DNA of 64,000 nt from NCBI GenBank assembly GCA_903842445.1, contig CAIMLT010000003.1:5696-69695 (forward strand). Direction: 5' to 3'. The notes beneath the pieces are model-generated. The model was not told where the DNA came from, searched no databases, and saw nothing but the letters and a program-made list of their open reading frames with translations. The translations under genes and the position numbers were made by a program. The first letter of the stretch is position 1; each line of letters opens with the position of its first letter. This DNA comes from an uncultured bacterium. GTDB lineage: Bacteria; Patescibacteriota; Minisyncoccia; Moranbacterales; UBA2206. Below are positions 4,831-14,564 of the stretch, piece by piece.

Positions 4831-6090
4831 TCAGTGAACTGCGCAACTAATACAAGGATCGTAAGCTCGAATAAAAGCACGCAACTTTTTTTCTTTTTCT
4901 TTATCTTTTAATTTTAAAATTTGTGGGATGTATTCAGCAATGTCATCTTCGAGGTTCGAGAGAAATTGGGCAGTTGGAGTAATGATATTCACATTCTTCA
5001 CATAACCTTTGGCATCAACATCAACATGATAATAAAGTGTTCCGCGCGGCGCTTCAATGGCCGCAACACCTACTCCTTCGCAAACTTTATATTCTTTAGT
5101 TATAACCTCATTCAAATCGCTGTTCAAAAGCTCCAGCATAATCCGCTTTGATTCTTCAATTGATTGGATAACTTCCACCATCTGCGCCAAAATATTATGA
5201 AAAGGATTGTAATCTGGAAATGTCCAACCCAAACTTCTCAGATAGTTTGATGCATTATCTCTTAACTTCGCCCTATTATTGTTTATCCTGGCGATTGCTC
5301 CAACCATATAGCTCTGACCATTATGTTTGACGCGCTTAATCACTTCCTTCTGTTTTTGTAATTCTAAAAAGTTATTTTCAAATTTTTTAACTGAAATATG
5401 CAATCCCAAGTTAGAAATAACATCACCGTCATAAATCGCATATTCACCATTCTTACCCAAGGAAATATATTCGGTTACGCGAGAAAATTCCGGGATTTTT
5501 ATTCCTCTAAAAAACTCTCCCAAACTAAGTGCTATTTGCAGAATATCTTCAGAATCCCCAACCAGCTTTTTTAAAGCCTCTCTATCTGGCGCTTTTTTGA
5601 ATCCACCCACTTCATTGGTTAGCGGATGCACGACTCTACCGCCAACTATTTTCACAATTTCCATTCCATATTCGCGGATTTTAATCGCCATTTTTGCCTC
5701 TGCGGAATACTTGCTTATTAGCTCAATGTCATTATTCATATCTAAGAAATCAGCCAGCGACAAAAAGAAAAGATGCAGAGCATGCGAATGAATAAATTGA
5801 GCGTATTCCAAAAGCGTTCGCAATTTTTTAGTTTCGTATGTCACAGAAACCCCCATAGCGTTTTCGAGAGCTTTTATTGAAGTCAGGTTGTGAACTACCG
5901 GACAAATCCCACAAATCCGCTGAGCAATAAGTGGCATATCTTGATATTCTCGCCCAATAAGCACGCCTTCAATTAAACGAACTCCTTCCTGCACTTGAAA
6001 TTTAGCCGACTTAACGTCACCGTTGAGCACGCTCGCCATAAAGCCAGTATGACCCTCTATTTTTGCAATGTGGTTTATTTTTATCTTCAT
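4831..6090 (-). CDS. [NiFe]-hydrogenase large subunit, group 3
   Basis: 419 aa with N-terminal Ni-binding RICGICPVVH. It ends exactly at DPCISCAVH followed by the stop, so there is no C-terminal extension. Confidence 0.9.
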   Translation of the reverse strand: MKIKINHIAKIEGHTGFMASVLNGDVKSAKFQVQEGVRLIEGVLIGREYQDMPLIAQRICGICPVVHNLTSIKALENAMGVSVTYETKKLRTLLEYAQFIHSHALHLFFLSLADFLDMNNDIELISKYSAEAKMAIKIREYGMEIVKIVGGRVVHPLTNEVGGFKKAPDREALKKLVGDSEDILQIALSLGEFFRGIKIPEFSRVTEYISLGKNGEYAIYDGDVISNLGLHISVKKFENNFLELQKQKEVIKRVKHNGQSYMVGAIARINNNRAKLRDNASNYLRSLGWTFPDYNPFHNILAQMVEVIQSIEESKRIMLELLNSDLNEVITKEYKVCEGVGVAAIEAPRGTLYYHVDVDAKGYVKNVNIITPTAQFLSNLEDDIAEYIPQILKLKDKEKEKKLRAFIRAYDPCISCAVH

Positions 6091-8032: not shown

Positions 8033-9193
8033 ATGGAGTTTGAATTTCCCCTAAAACAAAATAAAGTTATTTTAGCGCTTGGTGGAGAATCCGCTGGCAA
8101 TTTTTCGGTTTGCAATAAGGGTAAAGTTTATTTTTCCAAAGATTTTGGCGATTTACTGGTTGAAAGTAACTTAGCAAATTATAAAAAGGCGGTCTTGAAT
8201 TATCTGAAAAAACATAAGTTTAAGCCTGAAATAATCCTAATTGATCTCCATCCGCTTTTTCACACAACCCTTTGGGGCAAAATGCTCACTAAACAATATA
8301 AAGCCGAATGCATCCAAGTCCAACATCACCACGCCCATATTTTTTCCTCTATCGGCGACAGAATATTGCAATCTGCAATCTACCAACTACCTGATAAATT
8401 CTACGCTCTAGCCATGGACGGAACGGGACTTGGAACAGACGGGAAGATTTGGGGAGGAGAGGTTTTTAAAATTAGTTGTCATTCCCGCGCAGGCGGGAAT
8501 CCAGTCTCATATAATTCAGTTTATAAACTAAATTTACCCTTACACGAGAATACAATAAACTATACTGTCGAAAGAATTGGGCATTTGGAAAATCAAATTT
8601 TGGTTGGTGGAGATTTAGCAATTCAAGAACCAGCGAGAATGTTAATTGGAATTCTAAGTAAATTCCTGAACAAATCTGAAATTTATAATCTAACTAAAAA
8701 ATATTATTCCAAAAACGAATTTGAGGTAATTTATAGCCAACTTAGACAAAATTTCAATTGCCTCGAAACTTCCAGCACCGGAAGAATTTTAGATGCCGTA
8801 TCGCTGCTCCTAGGCTTTTGCGGAAACGAGAGAAAATATAAACATGAACCGATTGATCTACTGGAAAAAAATTCCACTAAACCCTATGAACTTAAGCCAA
8901 TTATAGAAAATAATGTTTTATTAACTACGCCGCTGTTTAAATATTTGATTAAAAATCTGCATAAAGATAAAAAAAGACTCGCCGCCATGGCACAGCTTTA
9001 TCTTGCGCAGGGACTACTTAAGATAATTAAATTAGCTGGTAATTTTGACATTTTTATTTCCGGCGGAATTGCCAAAAATAAAATTATTTCTAAATGCTTA
9101 GAATCCAAAGGCGCCTACGCCAGTAAAATCATCCCTCGCGGCGACGCCGGACTTTCTTTCGGACAATTGGTTTATTATTTATTGAATTATTAA
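8033..9193 (+). CDS. hypF: HypF-like carbamoyltransferase, Kae1-like C-terminal domain only (no acylphosphatase, Zn-finger or YrdC domains)
   Basis: 386 aa with LALGGESAGNF, VQHHHAHIFS (the HypF QHHxAH motif as I recall it), AMDGTGLGTDGKIWGGE and RGDAGLSFGQ. It converges on hypE with overlapping stops. Confidence 0.55.
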   Translation: MEFEFPLKQNKVILALGGESAGNFSVCNKGKVYFSKDFGDLLVESNLANYKKAVLNYLKKHKFKPEIILIDLHPLFHTTLWGKMLTKQYKAECIQVQHHHAHIFSSIGDRILQSAIYQLPDKFYALAMDGTGLGTDGKIWGGEVFKISCHSRAGGNPVSYNSVYKLNLPLHENTINYTVERIGHLENQILVGGDLAIQEPARMLIGILSKFLNKSEIYNLTKKYYSKNEFEVIYSQLRQNFNCLETSSTGRILDAVSLLLGFCGNERKYKHEPIDLLEKNSTKPYELKPIIENNVLLTTPLFKYLIKNLHKDKKRLAAMAQLYLAQGLLKIIKLAGNFDIFISGGIAKNKIISKCLESKGAYASKIIPRGDAGLSFGQLVYYLLNY

Positions 9194-10248
9194 CAAATCC
9201 TCGGAATCAACTTCCCTCTCGGCACCTCAATTTTCTTAAGACTCCCAATATTTGTAGCTAAATATAAGCCTTTTTTCTCATTTTCTCGATTGGAAAACTT
9301 TTTCACAAACCCAATAACCTTAGCTTCTGGGTTGAATTTTTGCAAAATTTTAATAACTTTATCGGCATTTTCTTTGGCAACCGTCGCCACAAACCGACCT
9401 TCGGACGGAAAAGAGAACTTATCGATTCCCAAAAGATTTGAAAGCGCAACTGTTTCTTTGGCAAACGGTAATTTGCTTTCTTCAAGAATAATGCGGACTT
9501 TGGATTTTTCGGAAATTTCATTGAGCACCGCAGCTACTCCGCCGCGCGTCGGATCCTTGCAAGCTGTTAGATATTTCGCAACGCTTTGAATTTCTTTGGT
9601 GAGCGGCTGGCAATCACTTTTGATTTTGGTTTTATAATTAAATCTTTTGGAAAGAAGTGCGACGGCGTGCTCGCCAAGATTTCCGGAAGTAATGACAACA
9701 TCACCCGGTTTTGCACCATTGTTTGAAATAATATTTTCCGCAATTCCCACGCCAGAAGTCGTAATTTCAATTTTGTCGAGTTTGCCTTTTTCCGTAACTT
9801 TCGTGTCCCCGGTAACAATCGGCACGCCAGTAATTTTAGAAATCTGCCCAATCGATTGCATAATTTTTTTGAGATCCGCGATTGGAAAACCTTCTTCCAT
9901 CACCACGCTCAAAGAAATCCCGATTGGCACAGCGCCCATCACCGAAAGATCATTTATCGTCCCACAAATCGCGATTTTCCCGATGTCCCCACCCGGAAAA
10001 AAAATCGGATCAACAATAAAAGCATCTGTCGTAAAAACCAATTTCGATTTTCCCCCTCTCCTTAATAAGCCTGCCTGTCCGGTAGGCAGGGAGAGGGCTG
10101 GGGTGAGGTCAAAAACCGCCCCATCATCATTGGTATTTTTCCATTTTTTAGACCTCGGAAAACTTTTTCTAATTTCCGCAATCAACTCTTCGGATTTCCC
10201 GCCACCACCGCCATCTTCTAGCTCCACAAATTCTTTTTTATTATTCAT
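9190..10248 (-). CDS. hypE: hydrogenase maturation protein HypE (carbamoyl dehydratase)
   Basis: 352 aa ending in the HypE hallmark PRIC, with VDPIFFPGGDIGKIAICGTINDL and VTGDTKV. An in-frame insertion of about 10 aa coincides with the palindromic element at 10068-10092. Confidence 0.85.
   Translation of the reverse strand: MNNKKEFVELEDGGGGGKSEELIAEIRKSFPRSKKWKNTNDDGAVFDLTPALSLPTGQAGLLRRGGKSKLVFTTDAFIVDPIFFPGGDIGKIAICGTINDLSVMGAVPIGISLSVVMEEGFPIADLKKIMQSIGQISKITGVPIVTGDTKVTEKGKLDKIEITTSGVGIAENIISNNGAKPGDVVITSGNLGEHAVALLSKRFNYKTKIKSDCQPLTKEIQSVAKYLTACKDPTRGGVAAVLNEISEKSKVRIILEESKLPFAKETVALSNLLGIDKFSFPSEGRFVATVAKENADKVIKILQKFNPEAKVIGFVKKFSNRENEKKGLYLATNIGSLKKIEVPRGKLIPRIC
10068..10092. repeat. 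24-nt palindromic element (stem cctgcct / aggcagg), copy 1, in frame inside hypE
   Basis: agcctgcctgtccggtaggcaggga matches the copy at 12971-12994 at 24 of 25 nt in the same orientation. It encodes ALSLPTGQAGLL. Confidence 0.6.
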
Positions 10249-10275
10249 AATTTGTATTTTTATACTTCCTGTATT

Positions 10276-11322
10276 TTACACCTTAATGAAAAATGTAGGA
10301 AATATTTTTTTGAGTTGTTTTTCAATCTCAAATCCCTCGCAATGCCGCAAAACTCCAAGATACGATTGCAAACTCTTACTGAAAGATTCTACAAAAATCA
10401 AATCTTCCCGTAATAATTTGTGTTTCTGAGAATTTTTTTTGAATATTCTTCTTTTCGTTTTCGTTCGCAAAATCCGGTAATCAGAAAAGTTGACCATTCC
10501 TAGAAAATCAATGCCACTTGCCAGAGTTTTCAAAAAAACCTTATTTGGATGCAATTCCAGCTTCAGTTCATTGGATAAAAACTTTTCAATTTTTGGAATC
10601 TGATTTTCAAGTAAGCTTTTATCTTCCGACAAAAACACAAAATCATCGGCGTAGCGGAGATAATATTTGGCTTTCAGTTTATGTTTTGCAAATTGATCAA
10701 ATTTATTCATATAAATGTTGACGAATAATTGTGAAGTTAGGTTTCCAAGTGGCAAACCTGTATAAATTTTATTTTTGGTGGTAAAACTTTTTATAATATT
10801 TTCCAAAAGATTAATAATATTTTCATCTGGAATATATTCAGCTAGAATTTCCAACAAAATCTGATGATCCATATTAGCAAAAAACTTTTTAATGTCGCAT
10901 TTCAAAATCCAGCAAGTTTTGATATTATTTTTACTGACAATATGGGCATATTCGCGGAATTTATCAATGGCTTTATGTGTGCCTTTTTTGTTTCTGCAAG
11001 AATAGGAATCGGCAATGAAAGTTTTGTCAAAAAAAGGATAGAGAATTCTATATATGGCATGGTGCAAAAGTCGATCGCGCACGCTGGCCTTGTGAATGTC
11101 CCTGGGTTTTGGATCATTGATTTTGAAAGCTTGATAACCGCCGTGTTCATAGGTATGATTGAAAAGATCGCAGTGCAGTGAAAAAATATTATCCATCAGT
11201 TTCATTGAAAATTCTTGCACATCTTTTCTGTTTTTCTTGCCTTTTTCGAATTCTTGCCAAGCCAGAAGTAAGTTTTCTAAACAAATAATATTCTCAAAAT
11301 TATGACTCAATTGAATTTTCAT
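10276..11322 (-). CDS. diversity-generating retroelement reverse transcriptase
   Basis: 348-aa RT with catalytic YADD (LRYADDFVFL) and the DGR-type domain-4 motif GLPLGNLTSQLFVNIYM (SQ in place of the group II QG). There is no maturase/endonuclease domain. Avd, TR and VR lie alongside. Confidence 0.85.
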   Translation of the reverse strand: MKIQLSHNFENIICLENLLLAWQEFEKGKKNRKDVQEFSMKLMDNIFSLHCDLFNHTYEHGGYQAFKINDPKPRDIHKASVRDRLLHHAIYRILYPFFDKTFIADSYSCRNKKGTHKAIDKFREYAHIVSKNNIKTCWILKCDIKKFFANMDHQILLEILAEYIPDENIINLLENIIKSFTTKNKIYTGLPLGNLTSQLFVNIYMNKFDQFAKHKLKAKYYLRYADDFVFLSEDKSLLENQIPKIEKFLSNELKLELHPNKVFLKTLASGIDFLGMVNFSDYRILRTKTKRRIFKKNSQKHKLLREDLIFVESFSKSLQSYLGVLRHCEGFEIEKQLKKIFPTFFIKV

Positions 11323-11323
11323 A

Positions 11324-11713
11324 ATGATACTTCTACTCTTAAAGCCCCCCCCCAGAGGAGTGCCTGCTGTAATTATAAAAGAAAAAGAAACTTATACCTA
11401 TTGGCTAGCTTTGCATCGCAATTTCCCGAAAACTGAACGCTATGGACTTGGAAGAAGAATCGACCAGCTATTCCTGGAAATTCTTGAACTCAGTTTTACT
11501 GCTGCATATTTACCGGCTGATCCAAAAATAATCCTATTGGGAAAAATAATTTCTCGTCTTGATGTGCTTAAATTTTTCTCACAACTCGCTTGGGAAAATA
11601 AATTAATTCCTTCTGAAAAATATCTGGAACTTTCCCAAAAACTGGAAGAAATCGGTCGAATGTTTGGCGGCTGGAGAAAAGGACTTTTGGAAAAGAAAAC
11701 TCCTGCCAAATAA
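11324..11713 (+). CDS. avd: DGR accessory variability determinant (Avd-like four-helix-bundle protein)
   Basis: 129 aa. YTYWLALHRNFPKTERYGLGRR and the C-terminal EIGRMFGGWRKGLLEK resemble the Avd / 23S-rRNA-IVS protein family as I recall the Bordetella phage Avd ending. It is oriented opposite to the RT; the start codon is uncertain because a C9 tract lies at codons 8-10. Confidence 0.75.
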   Translation: MILLLLKPPPRGVPAVIIKEKETYTYWLALHRNFPKTERYGLGRRIDQLFLEILELSFTAAYLPADPKIILLGKIISRLDVLKFFSQLAWENKLIPSEKYLELSQKLEEIGRMFGGWRKGLLEKKTPAK

Positions 11714-11720
11714 GCAGGAG
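11700..11720. other. 7-bp hairpin (ctcctgc...gcaggag) overlapping the avd stop and flanking the 3' end of TR
   Basis: Perfect inverted repeat with a 7-nt loop lying between avd and TR. Confidence 0.35.
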
Positions 11721-11736
11721 AAAAACAGTAGTTTCA

Positions 11737-11845
11737 GAAGAACACCTGGTTGTCATCATTCCACCTATTCGTATCATCGACAGAGTTGGCATTGACGTTC
11801 CAACCATCGTCGTTCCAGTTACAATTCACCGCACGAAGCACACCG
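11737..11845 (-). repeat. DGR template repeat (TR)
   Basis: Near-identical to 12211-12319. In TR-sense (minus strand) it carries A at all 20 positions where VR differs, and it translates in the VR frame to NCNWNDDGWNVNANSVDDTNRWNDDN. Confidence 0.85.
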
Positions 11846-12106
11846 GCATTCTCGAGCAAAGAGCCATCCATTCCACTATCCTTCGAATGCTCTCCGGATT
11901 GTATCGCATTTGGGACATTAAAAGTCCGCCAGCTTTTTGCACCAATTCCTGTATTTTTTTGAAAAGATTATTTTCCATACTATTATGCAAGGCTTGCCCG
12001 GCACAACTCTCGCGAAAAATATCTTAAAGCCATGACACAAAAGCCGTAACCGTTGCGTATCACATGAGTTCATAAAAAGTATAGCAAAAAAATTTGAAAT
12101 AAAAAA

Positions 12107-12152
12107 TGACCCTTTGAATTTTTTTCGATTTTCGAGAAAATTCAAAGGGTCA
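12107..12152 (-). terminator. Rho-independent terminator of the DGR target gene (16-bp perfect stem followed by a T-run on the minus strand)
   Basis: tgaccctttgaatttt / aaaattcaaagggtca with a 14-nt loop. On the minus strand it is followed by ttttttatttc. Confidence 0.55.
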
Positions 12153-12170
12153 AAGTGACAAAGAATCAAA

Positions 12171-12184
12171 GGGACAAGTGTCCC
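12171..12184 (-). other. GC-rich hairpin (gggac aagt gtccc) immediately downstream of the VR and the target stop
   Basis: 5-6-bp GC stem with a 4-nt loop about 10 nt 3' of the stop. This is reminiscent of the cruciform/hairpin needed for DGR homing. Confidence 0.4.
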
Positions 12185-12189
12185 AGAGC

Positions 12190-12867
12190 TTAAGCGGCAA
12201 CAGGAACTCGGAAGAACACCTGGCGGACAGCACGCCACCCATCCGTATCATCGACAGAGCGGGCACGGACGTCCCAACCATCGCCGCACCAGCCACAAGG
12301 CACCGCACGAAGCACACCGTTTTTGTCCCTGATGTAGAAGATGTTGGCATAACCGTTGTTCAAAAGAACGCCGGCTTCACCATTCCGCTGCTTCTCCATC
12401 TGAGAGAACATTTCCGATAAGGTAGTTTCGGCTTTTGCTTCACCACCTATCTCGGCGATGATCAGATCGTCAACCGAGGCTTTTTTCAGTCTGGCACAGC
12501 GAAGTTCCTGCTCACCGATAGGAGTCTCAATTTTGCCATCTTCGCCAAGAAACCACTTCGTGAAATTATCGCCAAGGTAACTGATTTTGACATTAGCCTC
12601 TTTGCTCGTATCAACAATAAACTTATCACGAGCGATAAAATTCACAATTCTTGCTGGAATAGTGACGGTGTTGATCATTTCGAGCAGAATATTGATTATG
12701 CCCTCTGACCAACATTTCTCCTTTCGGAGAAATTTTTTGAATTCCGCAAACCACACTTGGCATGCCTCACCAGATAGTTTTTCCGCCAAATCGCAGATTG
12801 CTCCCAACATTTCTCTTGGAAGATCCACAATCTTACGAACTACTTCACCGAGCATGTCTTTTTTCAT
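12190..12867 (-). CDS. DGR target protein (variable C-terminal C-type-lectin-like region); no signal peptide
   Basis: 225 aa. The C-terminal VR-encoded segment GVLRAVPCGWCGDGWDVRARSVDDTDGWRAVRQVFF corresponds to TR-encoded GVLRAVNCNWNDDGWNVNANSVDDTNRWNDDNQVFF. Confidence 0.8.
   Translation of the reverse strand: MKKDMLGEVVRKIVDLPREMLGAICDLAEKLSGEACQVWFAEFKKFLRKEKCWSEGIINILLEMINTVTIPARIVNFIARDKFIVDTSKEANVKISYLGDNFTKWFLGEDGKIETPIGEQELRCARLKKASVDDLIIAEIGGEAKAETTLSEMFSQMEKQRNGEAGVLLNNGYANIFYIRDKNGVLRAVPCGWCGDGWDVRARSVDDTDGWRAVRQVFFRVPVAA
12211..12319 (-). repeat. DGR variable repeat (VR) at the 3' end of the target gene
   Basis: 20 substitutions relative to TR, all at TR-adenine positions. The 13-bp fully conserved 3' block (ccaggtgttcttc on the minus strand) fits an IMH-like end. 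Confidence 0.85.
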
Positions 12868-12970
12868 GGTCAGTCTCCTTTTTTCTTAAAAAATATTTGC
12901 TTCCAGCTAACCGACATGGTTTTGCCACAGCAGAAAAGATTCATTTTGAAACTAGATCCCCGTATTCACG

Positions 12971-12994
12971 AGCCTGCCTGCCGGTAGGCAGGGA
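12971..12994. repeat. 24-nt palindromic element, copy 2, about 105 nt upstream of the DGR target gene
   Basis: agcctgcctgccggtaggcaggga, a direct copy of the element inside hypE. Confidence 0.6.
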
Positions 12995-13165
12995 TGACAA
13001 TTTATAAAAACCCTTTCTGCTGTGGCAAATCACAAATATTAAAGAACTATCACTTAATAAAAAAGCTTCGCATATTTTCAGTTATATGTCAAACTAAATT
13101 GCCTTTTTTTGGCTTATGCAAAGGTTTTTATCGAAATTTACCAAGAAAAATTACAATTTTTGTCC

Positions 13166-14206
13166 TCAATTATCATATCTATACTCCACACTACAACTCC
13201 CCTCCCGTGAAACCATGCACGCACCTTGTGGATTATCCGGATTACACGCTTTCCCAAAAAGCGGACAATCTTTTGACGAAATAATCCCTTGCAAAACTTC
13301 GCCACATCGACACGCGCTCGGCTTGGTTTTTGTTTCTTTTTTAATTTTTGAAATCAAATCCCGATAAACAAATTCCGCATCATACTCACGATATTTTTTT
13401 CTAATTTTGAGTCCTGAATTTTTTATTTTTCCAAATCCGCGCCATGTGGCATCACTAATTTCAAAAACTTCCGCAATCATTTTTCTGGCTTTTGGATTGC
13501 CATCTTTCTTGACCAATCGCGAATAAGCATTTTCAACTTTTTTTTCGCCGGAAATAATTTGTGTAAGCAATTTATCAATCGCGATGAGCACATCTTCGCC
13601 GGTAAATCCGGCAATCACTTGCGGAATTTTAAATTGCGCGTAAATTTCTGTTCCGATAATCGCGCTAACATGCCCTGGGTTAATAAACCCATCAACTCTG
13701 ATTTTTTTATTTTGAAGCAGCGCTTCCATTGCCGGCGGAAAAAGTTTATGCGCAGAATAAACGATCAGCCCATTTCTAATCGCCCAAGCTGTCATCCCGG
13801 TCGTTGTTTCAAATCCCAGACCAAAAAAAACCAAATTCGGTTTTTCTTTTTTCATTTCGACCCCTTCAGTTATATCATAAACAATATTCACATCCGCGCC
13901 ATTTCTTCTGGCTTCTTCCAAGCTCATTAAATTTCCCGGAACTTGGATTGCGTCGCCATAAACCGCCACCGGAATTCCATGAAGCGCGAGACCAACCATA
14001 ACATCAATATCAGATTGATCAGTCACACAAACCGGACAACCCGGCCCAGAAACTAAAGTTATATTTTTTGGCAAAATATTTTTTATGCCATTTTCCGCAA
14101 TCGCCTCAGCATGCGTTCCGCAAAGCTCCATAAACCACAAAGGTCGCCCAATTTTTTCAGCTTTTTCGTGAATACTTTTTAAAAAATTTTTTAACTCACT
14201 GTTCAT
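13166..14206 (-). CDS. hypD: hydrogenase maturation protein HypD
   Basis: 346 aa with MELCGTHAE, GPGCPVCVT and a C-terminal CPLFGKACNP...GACMVSREGSC motif. Confidence 0.9.
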   Translation of the reverse strand: MNSELKNFLKSIHEKAEKIGRPLWFMELCGTHAEAIAENGIKNILPKNITLVSGPGCPVCVTDQSDIDVMVGLALHGIPVAVYGDAIQVPGNLMSLEEARRNGADVNIVYDITEGVEMKKEKPNLVFFGLGFETTTGMTAWAIRNGLIVYSAHKLFPPAMEALLQNKKIRVDGFINPGHVSAIIGTEIYAQFKIPQVIAGFTGEDVLIAIDKLLTQIISGEKKVENAYSRLVKKDGNPKARKMIAEVFEISDATWRGFGKIKNSGLKIRKKYREYDAEFVYRDLISKIKKETKTKPSACRCGEVLQGIISSKDCPLFGKACNPDNPQGACMVSREGSCSVEYRYDN

Positions 14207-14225
14207 TATTATTTTTTATCATCAC

Positions 14226-14339
14226 GACTTAAGCGTTCGTCCGGAAAAAGTCCGCACGTTCGTTTTTTTTGGCACCTTAAGGCTTTTGATAAAGCAAGAG
14301 AAGAAAAGTCAAAGTAATAAAATTACGCTTTAGTAATTT
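14226..14339. repeat. about 115-bp conserved intergenic element, copy 1 (between hypC and hypD)
   Basis: Roughly 80% identical to 19403-19520. The core is ttcgtccggaaaaagtccgcacRttcg followed by ggcttttgRtaaagcaagaRagaaaagYcaaag. Confidence 0.6.
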
Positions 14340-14345
14340 CAAAAA

Positions 14346-14564
14346 TCACACGCCAGCCTTAAGCTCTGTTTTCAAATACCCTTTCATTTCACTAGCATAA
14401 TCCGCATCCATCTTCTCAATCGCAAAACCCGCGTGCACCATCACATACTCACCAGCTCTCACTGAAACTAAAGAAATATTGATTTCTTTCTGGATCCCAT
14501 CAAAATCAACTGTTGCCAGTTGATTTTTGATAGAAATAATTTTTCCAGGAATAGCAAGGCACAT
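14346..14564 (-). CDS. hypC: hydrogenase maturation protein HypC
   Basis: 72 aa starting with the canonical MCLAIPGKII. Confidence 0.85.
   Translation of the reverse strand: MCLAIPGKIISIKNQLATVDFDGIQKEINISLVSVRAGEYVMVHAGFAIEKMDADYASEMKGYLKTELKAGV

Follow-up and report, generated by a model that had tools for sequence, protein, structure and literature searches.

We propose that the 64-kb window (the whole stretch of DNA analysed here) carries a complete diversity-generating retroelement (DGR) of the standard CPR type, Architecture B3, and we give this reading a probability of roughly 0.8. The cassette consists of a target gene with its variable repeat (VR), a template repeat (TR), an avd gene on the opposite strand and the reverse transcriptase (RT) gene. 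According to this proposal, the inverted avd is the conserved layout of the RT clade, the TR RNA would form a self-contained unit, and avd would start inside the RT gene and contain a slippery run. The anatomy of the cassette and its conservation were observed directly, the latter by comparison with about 200 related loci; because these loci are phylogenetically related, the ratios quoted below overstate their independence.

The RT gene lies on the minus strand at 10276..11322, as originally described, and encodes a protein of 348 amino acids. It is of the DGR type, as indicated by a match to Pfam RVT_1 (E=1.8e-26) and the presence of LPLGNLTSQ, a form of the [I/L]GxxxSQ sequence in RT motif 4 that marks DGRs, and none of the NCBIfam group II intron, retron and Drt models matched the protein at cut-off. 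Its homologues, which number in the thousands at 70–79% identity, bear the names Moranbacteria, Parcubacteria or Patescibacteria. Across all six frames of the 64-kb window, the only Avd-like ORF is found at 11324..11713 on the plus strand, and none occurs on the minus strand, both in agreement with the original prediction. This 129-aa ORF scores 53.5 bits against Pfam bAvd (cut-off 40; residues 23–120), which identifies the product as the Avd accessory protein of a DGR, and 69.1 bits against NCBIfam Avd (residues 16–119), under the cut-off of 80. The region coding for the Avd core, a four-helix-bundle accessory protein, spans 11357..11713 on the plus strand and reaches 153 bits with the family HMM.

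The target gene (12190..12867, minus strand) encodes 225 amino acids, with no Pfam or NCBIfam family match at E≤0.01. Its VR (12208..12319, minus strand) ends five codons before the target stop, placing it at the 3′ end of the gene, and is a 112-nt direct repeat of the TR (11734..11845), to which it is 81% identical and whose sense strand is likewise minus. The TR contains 28 adenines, 20 of which differ in the VR, and 20 of the 21 mismatches on the minus strand are changes from TR-A to VR-N, the adenine specificity of a DGR. The minus-strand orientation claimed earlier for the target, the TR and the TR-sense adenines is thereby upheld. In both copies the last ~14 nt of the repeat are identical, with no A-type change among them. 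A terminator scan found, immediately 3′ of the target stop, a 5-bp GC hairpin, GGGAC-ACTT-GTCCC (12171..12184, minus strand), in the position of the classical post-VR/IMH hairpin, whose function it may share by analogy with the Bordetella DGR literature. The target gene is closed by an intrinsic-terminator-like element (12090..12152, minus strand), an inverted repeat with a perfect 16-bp stem (arms at 12107–12122 and 12137–12152, 100% complementary) followed by a T run; a block matching this element, 'gggg..TTTTTTTT', is conserved in a 61-locus spacer alignment.

The orientation of avd had first been noted as a departure from the Bordetella-phage canon, in which target, avd, TR and RT follow one another on one strand, and this much is correct. 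It had been put down to an unusual architecture or a rearranged cassette, which does not hold. In Architecture B3, as defined in the pertinent passages of Wu, Gingery et al. (Nucleic Acids Res 2018; PMC5758913), the order is TR-(avd)-RT and avd runs on the reverse strand; according to the same passages this architecture makes up 90% of 126 CPR DGRs (Wu et al. 2018; PMC5758913). Comparison with the catalogued CPR DGR architectures, which the original prediction had rightly called for, yields an exact match to B3. In the window avd is opposite to TR and RT, a single adjacent target lies upstream, order and strandedness are identical to those given in these passages with no architectural difference, and the titles Moranbacteria, Parcubacteria or Patescibacteria of the nearest RT homologues and loci agree with an occurrence in CPR. 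Since this layout is the published standard of CPR DGRs, the observation as first stated is ordinary.

Related loci bear this out. Avd is divergent in 75/75 of those with enough upstream DNA, and the order VR-TR-(avd)-RT, with the adenines on the RT strand, recurs in 58/58 loci in which a TR/VR pair was found, whereas canonical phage DGRs (RT 27–38% identical) have avd on the RT strand, upstream of RT in all but one locus. It is extremely improbable that the cassette is rearranged or decaying, or the contig mis-assembled, with the orientation of avd an accident of the locus. The sole basis for such a view is the difference from the Bordetella-phage order; against it stand the same layout in these independent relatives from many studies and assemblers, its publication as an architecture, the intactness of all parts with TR and VR differing at 20 adenines, and the conservation in place of the leader RNA and terminator described below. 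A strand or assembly error, held open at the outset as a way out, likewise fails in view of the 75 relatives. The architecture is known, but the homopolymer, the RT/avd overlap and the way the RNA unit is laid out seem to lack a published description: the searched passages of Wu et al. (2018; PMC5758913) make no mention of a 21-nt start overlap, an avd homopolymer or a promoter-leader-TR-terminator unit. A full-text literature search, the scope of which lay outside the CPR DGR survey of Paul et al. 2017, found no earlier description of the avd homopolymer, and an earlier account is possible.

The TR RNA looks autonomous, with its own predicted extended -10 element, a 5′ leader, the TR and a putative terminator overlapping the avd stop. 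The candidate promoter is the extended -10 element TGCTATACT (12078..12086, minus strand), of the form TGnTAnnnT and 242 nt upstream of the TR; in about 40 of 61 loci, TGnTAnnnT precedes the TR start by 230–245 nt. It would be followed by a structured 5′ leader of ~228 nt (11841..12077, minus strand), for which RNAalifold predicts 48 pairs across 28 loci. Covariation was observed directly in this leader, with compensatory changes in 43 of the pairs, and a covariance model built here (R1) scores 160.5 bits in the window and matches 70/71 divergent-avd loci and 0/29 canonical loci.

Fourteen nucleotides 3′ of the TR stands an intrinsic-terminator-like element, CTCCTGCT-tattt-GGCAGGAG plus TTTTCTTTTC (11690..11720, minus strand), which straddles the avd stop at 11711–11713. 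Its hairpin spans 11720–11700 and is followed by the TTTTCTTTTC U run, which is the structure of an intrinsic (Rho-independent) terminator; its activity is predicted. When the TR 3′ flank was aligned with MAFFT, RNAalifold found no more than 5 pairs owing to variable loop lengths, and per-sequence hairpin detection was used instead. By this means a hairpin was detected at the post-TR site in 69/73 loci; hairpins with 6 or more T among the next 9 nt were present in the TR sense in 57/73 loci and in the avd sense in 0/73; the expectation from shuffles is 0.9. The TR RNA would then be the product of a self-contained minus-strand non-coding RNA gene, comprising a promoter (12086–12078), leader (12077–11841), TR (11845–11734) and terminator-like hairpin with U run (11720–11690), so that nothing 3′ of the TR would need to be co-transcribed.

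The experimental prototype, the DGR of Bordetella phage BPP-1 (mtd-avd-TR-brt), has the same four parts as the window, namely an LGNLTSQ-type RT, an Avd four-helix bundle, an adenine-specific TR/VR pair and a target whose 3′ end holds the VR, and in both a small GC hairpin follows the VR. However, the structured RNA lies 3′ of the TR in the Bordetella phage and 5′ of the TR in the window, and the leader-TR-terminator layout suggests that the priming architecture may differ from the Bordetella model. In retron msr-msd, a structured RNA is also located 5′ of the reverse-transcribed template, on one short transcript separate from the RT mRNA. The likeness to retrons is one of topology only, as no branching G or a1/a2 repeats were identified in the window and the RT falls in the clade of DGRs rather than in that of retrons. 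A by-eye look for retron-like pairing of the 5′ leader with the TR 3′ flank established none. Within the leader, the sole Rfam hit of the window, RT-9 (RF03080), matches positions 11941–12060 (minus strand) over its full model length, including the GGUUACGGCU hairpin conserved in the family leader, although the score of 31.2 bits is below the gathering score of 46.1. RT-9 is a single-hairpin model, whereas the leader described here is far larger, with 228 nt and five helices, and scans of 25 related loci gave no RT-9 match at threshold, or at E≤0.5 where tested. RT-9 is one of the motifs RT-1 to RT-19, and RT motifs other than RT-10 have been proposed to act in DGRs too (Weinberg et al. 2017, PMC5737381).

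As originally described, the RT ATG (complement of 11320–11322) and a plus-strand ATG at 11324–11326 are parted by the single base 11323, leaving effectively zero intergenic space between RT and avd. The further claim that avd starts at ATG 11324 is not borne out, given that this codon is ATA in the two closest relatives, that public callers disagree on the start and that the family-conserved start lies 22 nt upstream, inside RT. This conserved start, ATG 11302–11304, is antisense to RT His7 and would open a leader peptide, MTQLNFHNDTSTLKA (11302..11344, plus strand). It was recognised by codon and frame statistics, which are direct observations. At RT codon 7, CAT outnumbers CAC by 65:0 and 119:1 in two data sets (184:1 in total), compared with 447:357 at the other RT His codons, and no stop interrupts the frame between the conserved ATG and the run in 52/52 and 107/107 loci, where 60 are expected. 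The leader peptides are alike among relatives, with synonymous and 3-nt-indel variation.

Because the conserved avd ATG is antisense to RT codon 7, the coding 5′ ends of RT and avd would overlap head-to-head by 21 nt, and each promoter would therefore have to sit within the coding sequence of the other. The spacing of a single nucleotide between two ATGs is peculiar to the window's lineage and stems from the lineage-specific in-frame ATG 11324. For RT, neither sigma-70 scans nor hexamer position histograms revealed a consistent or convincing promoter element. A TAGAAT-like hexamer right after the G-run would suit a leaderless RT mRNA only in the subset of loci with 13-nt spacing. A TAnnnT element ends 7 nt before the avd ATG and is possibly just forced by the RT codons there.

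Translation of Avd from ATG 11324, with the promoters of both genes buried in the coding sequence of the partner, seems rather unlikely to us. The codon does open an uninterrupted 129-aa ORF in the Avd frame, annotated as such by NCBI/ENA, and promoter-like hexamers are present on the plus strand inside RT at 11131–11187. However, the scan that yielded these hexamers is weak in AT-rich DNA (17 matches against 7.7 expected), no SD-like sequence lies upstream of ATG 11324, and the codon is not conserved even in the closest relatives (absent in L234–L237), being a lineage-specific ATG that falls in the Avd core frame by chance. Only 8 of the 66 loci sharing the window's frame state have an in-frame canonical start upstream of the run, and many relatives have in-frame stops between the RT start and the C-run. 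ATG 11324 may be an evolved rescue start, which would be compatible with the conserved start at 11302 and a slippery run.

The conserved avd start is separated from the Avd core by a C9 homopolymer (11345..11353, plus strand), which reads as G9 in the RT sense; no other G/C run in the 64 kb reaches 7. A run of G6 to G13 is found at the same place in 64/76 genome loci and di-nucleotide repeats in 5 more; the replacements seen in place of the C-run are (CT)n, (CA)n or (GA)n. The homopolymer is absent from all of the ~70 canonical phage DGR loci examined. With nine residues, the run falls within the class of homopolymers of about 8 or more that we regarded as slippage-prone. Poly-G as a sequencing artefact was considered and rejected, as the run is internal and fixed in position, was recovered by many studies and assemblers, and is identical in 8 independent contigs of one population.

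At C9, the frame from ATG 11302 is +1 out of the Avd core frame and stops at TGA 11434–11436. Of 125 distinct loci, 31 (25%) have the Avd core in frame, 28 would be brought into frame by an additional C and 66 by the loss of one; the run-less divergent-avd loci have an in-frame ATG in 11/11 cases. Differences in run length among near-identical contigs were observed directly. L003 (G9, in frame) and L106–113 (G10, out of frame) are 99.9% identical over 1.7 kb with the run as the only indel, RT lineage P0103 has runs of G10, G11 and G13, and L156 and L189 form a pair with G8 and G9. In consensus assemblies, the run thus varies in 3/7 lineages examined (P0103, L003 vs P0054, and L156 vs L189) and is without variation in the other 4/7 (P0037 at G9; P0032, P0024 and P0054 at G10; 6–8 contigs each). 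Assembly error is another possible source of one-base differences in G/C runs from one assembly to the next.

We tentatively propose, at slightly less than even odds, that avd is a contingency gene in most CPR DGRs, in which a hypermutable C/G homopolymer or, in places, di-nucleotide repeat would keep Avd out of frame in most cells and slippage would restore it, making the run a mutable switch on a mutator. The run, C9–C13 in length, would lie ~14 codons into avd, and in some three out of four loci, among them the window, the Avd core would not share the reading frame of the conserved ATG. Full-length Avd would then require slippage in the run, be it at replication, transcription or translation. 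Some observations count against a slippage switch. One lineage is stably out of frame, a poor fit to a fast switch unless the OFF state is favoured or slippage is not heritable, and the unequal frame states (66, 28 and 31) could instead reflect a programmed +1 frameshift, or a role of the run that has nothing to do with frame.

Alternatively, the run could be a programmed recoding site, on which tRNA-Pro (at CCC-C) or RNA polymerase slips at a set rate to give a constant small fraction of Avd, with no heritable switch. CCC-C is well established as a +1 slippery site, and ribosomes stall on poly-proline; the commonest frame state (66/125) needs exactly a +1 shift in a CCC-C context, and an out-of-frame length is stable over 8 contigs of one population. 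We nevertheless find recoding doubtful, because all three frame states occur (31, 28 and 66) and no single programmed shift would serve every locus. Moreover, the di-nucleotide repeat variants would be unreadable by tRNA-Pro slippage, and the length differences between near-identical contigs exist at the level of DNA.

We regard it as quite unlikely that translation of Avd begins beyond the C-run, whether at GTG 11360 or at ATT/ATA, near-cognate codons at 11372–11377, with the run acting as a divergent control region, such as an RT-promoter spacer or 5′ UTR, and the upstream ATG opening a regulatory leader ORF whose poly-proline may stall ribosomes. On the window contig, JGI calls a protein of 117 aa from GTG 11360, compared with the 129 aa called by NCBI/ENA from ATG 11324, and callers choose GTG in the two nearest relatives. 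In several loci the run is succeeded by purine-rich, SD-like sequence, and it is just past the run that the canonical profiles of the Avd family set in. On the RT strand, some loci have -10-like hexamers after the G-run, and P0037 is a population in which the out-of-frame state is stable. The original prediction had also considered a downstream start after AGAGGAG at 11354–11360; this motif is indeed present, but it abuts the GTG with zero spacing, and the conserved start upstream disfavours the proposal. Furthermore, the Avd frame as far as Avd profile position 14 contains neither ATG nor GTG nor TTG in 35/94 out-of-frame loci, and such codons, present in 56/94 out-of-frame and 15/31 in-frame loci, are not significantly commoner in the former. 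The leader ORF ends at widely scattered points, its stop lying between 2 and 209 nt beyond the run, and the run-less loci are all fused in frame to an upstream ATG, with CCG Pro codons kept in L039. The (CT)n, (CA)n or (GA)n replacements suit a slippery tract better than poly-proline stalling. Models of internal starts and of leader-ORF coupling were tested and not favoured.

The contingency-gene proposal would align avd with known loci that vary by slipped-strand mispairing. Poly-G tracts in Campylobacter and Neisseria are well-known examples of such phase variation. As in contingency loci, the window family has a G/C homopolymer of 8–13 nt that would lie early in the coding region and that, in the assemblies of some lineages, varies in length where the rest of the sequence is the same. 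Most alleles would be out of frame; a different simple repeat occupies this spot in other lineages, and repeat-less alleles would be locked in frame. A further contingency example comes from group A Streptococcus, whose regulator mga carries a poly-C tract (PMC10330708). Unlike in the usual contingency loci, the gene that would be gated here is a targeted-mutator cofactor rather than a surface or restriction gene, and the hosts are uncultured CPR bacteria.

With regard to annotation, the same DNA is assigned any of three avd starts by different callers, or no avd gene. The leader-TR-terminator unit, if transcribed as predicted, would provide a defined RNA for in vitro reconstitution of a CPR DGR. 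If the slippery tract decides production of the essential RT cofactor Avd and hence gates DGR activity, this would offer a simple, testable answer to how and when DGRs switch on, for the largest natural DGR reservoir. Targeted hypermutation would then be switched on stochastically in a subpopulation.

The cassette is a diversity-generating retroelement (DGR) built around a reverse transcriptase (RT) of 348 aa on the minus strand (10276..11322; RVT_1 E=1.8e-26, LPLGNLTSQ present), the sole RT in the 64-kb window. On the plus strand, an Avd-like ORF of 129 aa (11324..11713) matches Pfam bAvd from residue 23 with 53.5 bits (cut-off 40) and the NCBIfam Avd model with 69 bits, under that model's cut-off of 80; it is the only Avd-like frame in the six frames of the window. 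The template repeat (TR; 11734-11845) and variable repeat (VR; 12208-12319) form a 112-nt direct repeat on the minus strand, with VR at the 3' end of a minus-strand target ORF (225 aa, 12190..12867) that matches no protein family in Pfam or NCBIfam. In minus-strand sense, all but one of the 21 TR/VR mismatches set a TR adenine against any base in VR; TR has 28 adenines, of which 20 are altered. The DGR hallmarks of RT, adenine-specific TR/VR pair, VR at the 3' end of the target and Avd are all present. The original prediction had placed avd on the strand opposite to RT, TR and target, with a plus-strand ATG at 11324 one base away from the RT ATG (complement of 11320-11322) and no avd-like frame on the minus strand, and this description of the sequence is accurate.

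The accompanying suggestion of an unusual or rearranged cassette does not hold. Comparison with catalogued CPR DGR architectures, which the original prediction had proposed as a check, identifies the window layout as B3 in the cassette classification of Wu et al. 2018 (PMC5758913), which writes it 'TR-(avd)-RT', the parentheses marking the reverse strand. Homologues of the window RT number thousands at 70-79% identity and carry the names Moranbacteria, Parcubacteria or Patescibacteria; these relatives are the basis on which the window itself is assigned to a taxon. Among 80 loci with an RT alignment from species-representative genomes, an Avd homologue lies just upstream of RT and is read from the other strand in 75/75 loci with sufficient upstream DNA, and the order VR, spacer, TR, avd (opposite), RT, with adenines on the RT strand, recurs in 58/58 loci with a detectable TR/VR pair; these related loci share common ancestry and their counts are not independent trials. 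The VR-TR spacer in the 58 loci measures 257-411 nt, with two outliers of 599 and 694 nt, and the end of TR is placed -9 to +57 nt relative to the avd stop. Canonical phage DGRs in a viral collection (RT 27-38% identical), taken as a control, have avd and RT on one strand, with avd upstream in every locus except L248; in the nine nearest loci of that collection (RT 45-59% identical) avd is again divergent. The layout shared by the relatives, together with the published B3 class, therefore excludes rearrangement, a decaying cassette and assembly error. The architecture is B3, and the point raised by the original prediction is itself known.

The cassette (10276-12867) sits between hydrogenase-maturation genes of the same strand (9190-14564), namely an AIR-synthase-related, HypE-like gene on one flank (9190..10248), and on the other flank hypD (13166..14206; Pfam HypD E=5e-123) and a 72-aa ORF (14346..14564) that is a HypC candidate by size. 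Neighbours in relatives are quite different (ClpP and iPGM; AbiEii and thioredoxin; PaaX and integrase; exonuclease VII), and since RTs 70-79% identical are spread across many CPR lineages, these differing neighbours suggest horizontal movement of the cassette. One related locus (L055) carries, in addition to its divergent avd, a second, weaker Avd-like ORF (86 bits; 5287-5631, plus strand) on the RT strand, about 2 kb downstream of RT.

The VR-TR spacer is conserved in both length and sequence in a 61-locus comparison. On the minus strand of the window it contains a predicted target-gene terminator (12152-12107; 16-bp perfect stem and T run), followed by an extended -10 element, TGCTATACT (12086-12078); about 40 of the 61 loci have this element, TGnTAnnnT, 230-245 nt upstream of TR. 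The ~228 nt between the element and TR share a conserved fold, for which a MAFFT alignment of 28 loci gave 48 predicted pairs, 43 of them with compensatory double changes. A covariance model built from this alignment matches 70 of 71 divergent-avd loci, and about 40 of these 70 had no part in building it; in every case the match is on the RT strand with its end at TR. The model matches 0 of 29 canonical loci, and the structured 5' leader of the window (12077-11841, minus strand) scores 160.5 bits. Part of the leader overlaps an Rfam RT-9 match below threshold (31 bits vs 46), and RT motifs besides RT-10, the Bordetella TR-RT spacer, have been proposed as DGR parts (Weinberg et al. 2017, PMC5737381). 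Whereas the structured RNA of the Bordetella phage lies 3' of TR, the conserved structured RNA found here lies 5' of it.

Directly after TR, 69 of 73 loci have a hairpin that spans the avd stop codon; its stem sequences differ among loci while pairing is kept, and it is followed on the TR strand by TTTTGTTTT. A hairpin with at least six T in 9 nt occurs in the TR direction in 57/73 loci and in the avd direction in 0/73, with 0.9 expected by chance. The one-directional, terminator-like hairpin of the window (11720-11700, minus strand, then TTTTCTTTTC; whole element 11690-11720) falls in the last codons and stop codon of avd, and the lysine-rich C-terminal tail of Avd is antisense to the T run. 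A GAAACT or CGCAACT motif, nearly invariant in an alignment of the TR 3' flanks of the window (11725-11742, minus strand) and its relatives, separates the end of TR/VR homology from the hairpin and could mark the start site of cDNA synthesis. On the simplest reading, the TR RNA would be a gene of its own with promoter, structured leader, TR and terminator, the extended -10 element probably acting as promoter and the hairpin and U run as terminator, which would leave the orientation of the next gene, avd, free.

ATG 11324, 1 nt from the RT ATG, lacks conservation as an avd start. It reads ATA in the two nearest relatives (RT 77-78% identical), many relatives have in-frame stops between the RT start and the Avd core, and gene callers disagree, both on the window contig (129 aa from ATG 11324 or 117 aa from GTG 11360) and on identical DNA of one relative (94, 113 or 138 aa, or no gene). 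Conserved instead is an avd-strand ATG 21 nt inside RT, antisense to RT codon His7 (11302-11304, plus strand). This codon is CAT in 65 genome loci and CAC in 0, against 447 CAT and 357 CAC at thirteen further His codons in these RTs; in 120 independent metagenome loci, retrieved by a pattern excluding codon 7, it is CAT in 119 and CAC in 1. Judged by codon usage, the antisense ATG is under selection. The frame that begins at this ATG stays open up to a homopolymer (C on the avd strand, G on the RT strand) preceding the Avd core. An open frame is seen in 52/52 loci and, in a count of distinct loci, in 107/107, where shuffles predict 60 and the remaining two frames are open in 81 and 19. The leader peptides are alike (MTQLNFHNDTSTLKAPP in the window, MSQLSFHNNSTFKAPPP and MGQLNFHNSSTFKSPPP in relatives), varying by synonymous changes and one 3-nt indel. 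We infer that avd is translated from ATG 11302; with this conserved ATG, RT and avd would share a head-to-head overlap of 21 nt instead of flanking a 1-nt gap. No SD-like sequence is visible upstream of ATG 11302 in the window. In 84/124 loci, a TAnnnT hexamer lies upstream with its end 7 nt from the conserved ATG, where RT codons may force it, and the avd mRNA may be leaderless.

In nearly every locus, the C run follows the leader at the onset of Avd homology. The 76 genome loci comprise 64 with a G6-G13 run on the RT strand (mostly 9-11), 5 with di-nucleotide repeats, (CT)n, (CA)n or (GA)n, and 7 with no run; about 70 canonical phage DGR loci have no such run upstream of RT. The C9 of the window (11345-11353, plus strand) is the sole G/C run of at least 7 in 64 kb of 38% G+C. 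A set of 125 distinct loci has both the conserved ATG and a run of at least 7; the ATG and the Avd core share a frame in 31 of them, 28 would need one more C and 66 one fewer (9, 17 and 26 in the first genome set). The window belongs to the largest class: the frame from ATG 11302 leaves C9 shifted by +1 and stops at TGA 11434-11436, and a run of C8 or C11 would join it to Avd. Where divergent-avd loci carry no slippery run, a canonical ATG stands in frame (11/11), and in L004, L025 and L039 the run is interrupted (e.g. CCG-CCG-CCG, proline kept) with the frame unbroken from the conserved ATG. At the RT-avd junction of a minority of lineages (L027, L037, L048, L062, L069, L079 and L246), 6-16 units of (CA)n, (CT)n or (GA)n replace the C run, and both in-frame and out-of-frame states are found. 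The window differs by 3 nt from its nearest relatives, which gives it ATG 11324 in frame with Avd; this may be an evolved bypass that frees this copy from dependence on the run.

Run length differs between near-identical contigs. Over 1.7 kb, locus L003, with G9 in frame, shares 99.9% identity with the eight contigs L106-L113, which have G10 out of frame, and the only indel between them is in the run; contigs of RT lineage P0103 share one identical RT and have G10, G11 or, at a contig end, G13; and L156 (G8, in frame) and L189 (G9) have flanks at least 95% identical. Four lineages with 6-8 contigs each show no variation (P0037, G9, out of frame; P0032, P0024 and P0054, G10). All these comparisons use consensus assemblies, which are blind to within-population heterogeneity and in which G/C-run differences can be errors. 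P0032 contigs with the same RT from different samples measure 27016, 27017, 27018 and 27039 nt, and the 1-2-base differences could reflect a homopolymer of variable length anywhere along the contig.

A fixed internal start, such as the one downstream of AGAGGAG raised in the original prediction, would leave the run outside the Avd coding region. Of the 94 out-of-frame loci, however, 35 are devoid of ATG, GTG and TTG codons in the Avd frame between the last stop and Avd profile position 14, and such codons are in no significant excess in out-of-frame (56/94) over in-frame loci (15/31). The stop of the shifted frame falls 2-209 nt beyond the run. Taken together, these results speak against a fixed internal start and against coupling of termination to reinitiation. 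We propose that Avd output depends on slippage in the run, so that DGR activity would be slippage-dependent as well, and we give the reading as a switch roughly even odds. Slippage could be heritable (replication), transcriptional or ribosomal; programmed frameshifting is a candidate too, since loci that require a +1 shift on CCC-C are over-represented. The RT promoter would lie inside the avd 5' region, where no convincing candidate was identified.

Full-text literature searches and the searched passages of Wu et al. turned up neither a homopolymer, phase variation or frameshifting in avd nor a leader-TR-terminator unit; Paul et al. 2017, the main CPR DGR survey, lies outside this coverage. 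As now understood, the locus would represent a regulatory variant that we have not found described, within a known kind of DGR.
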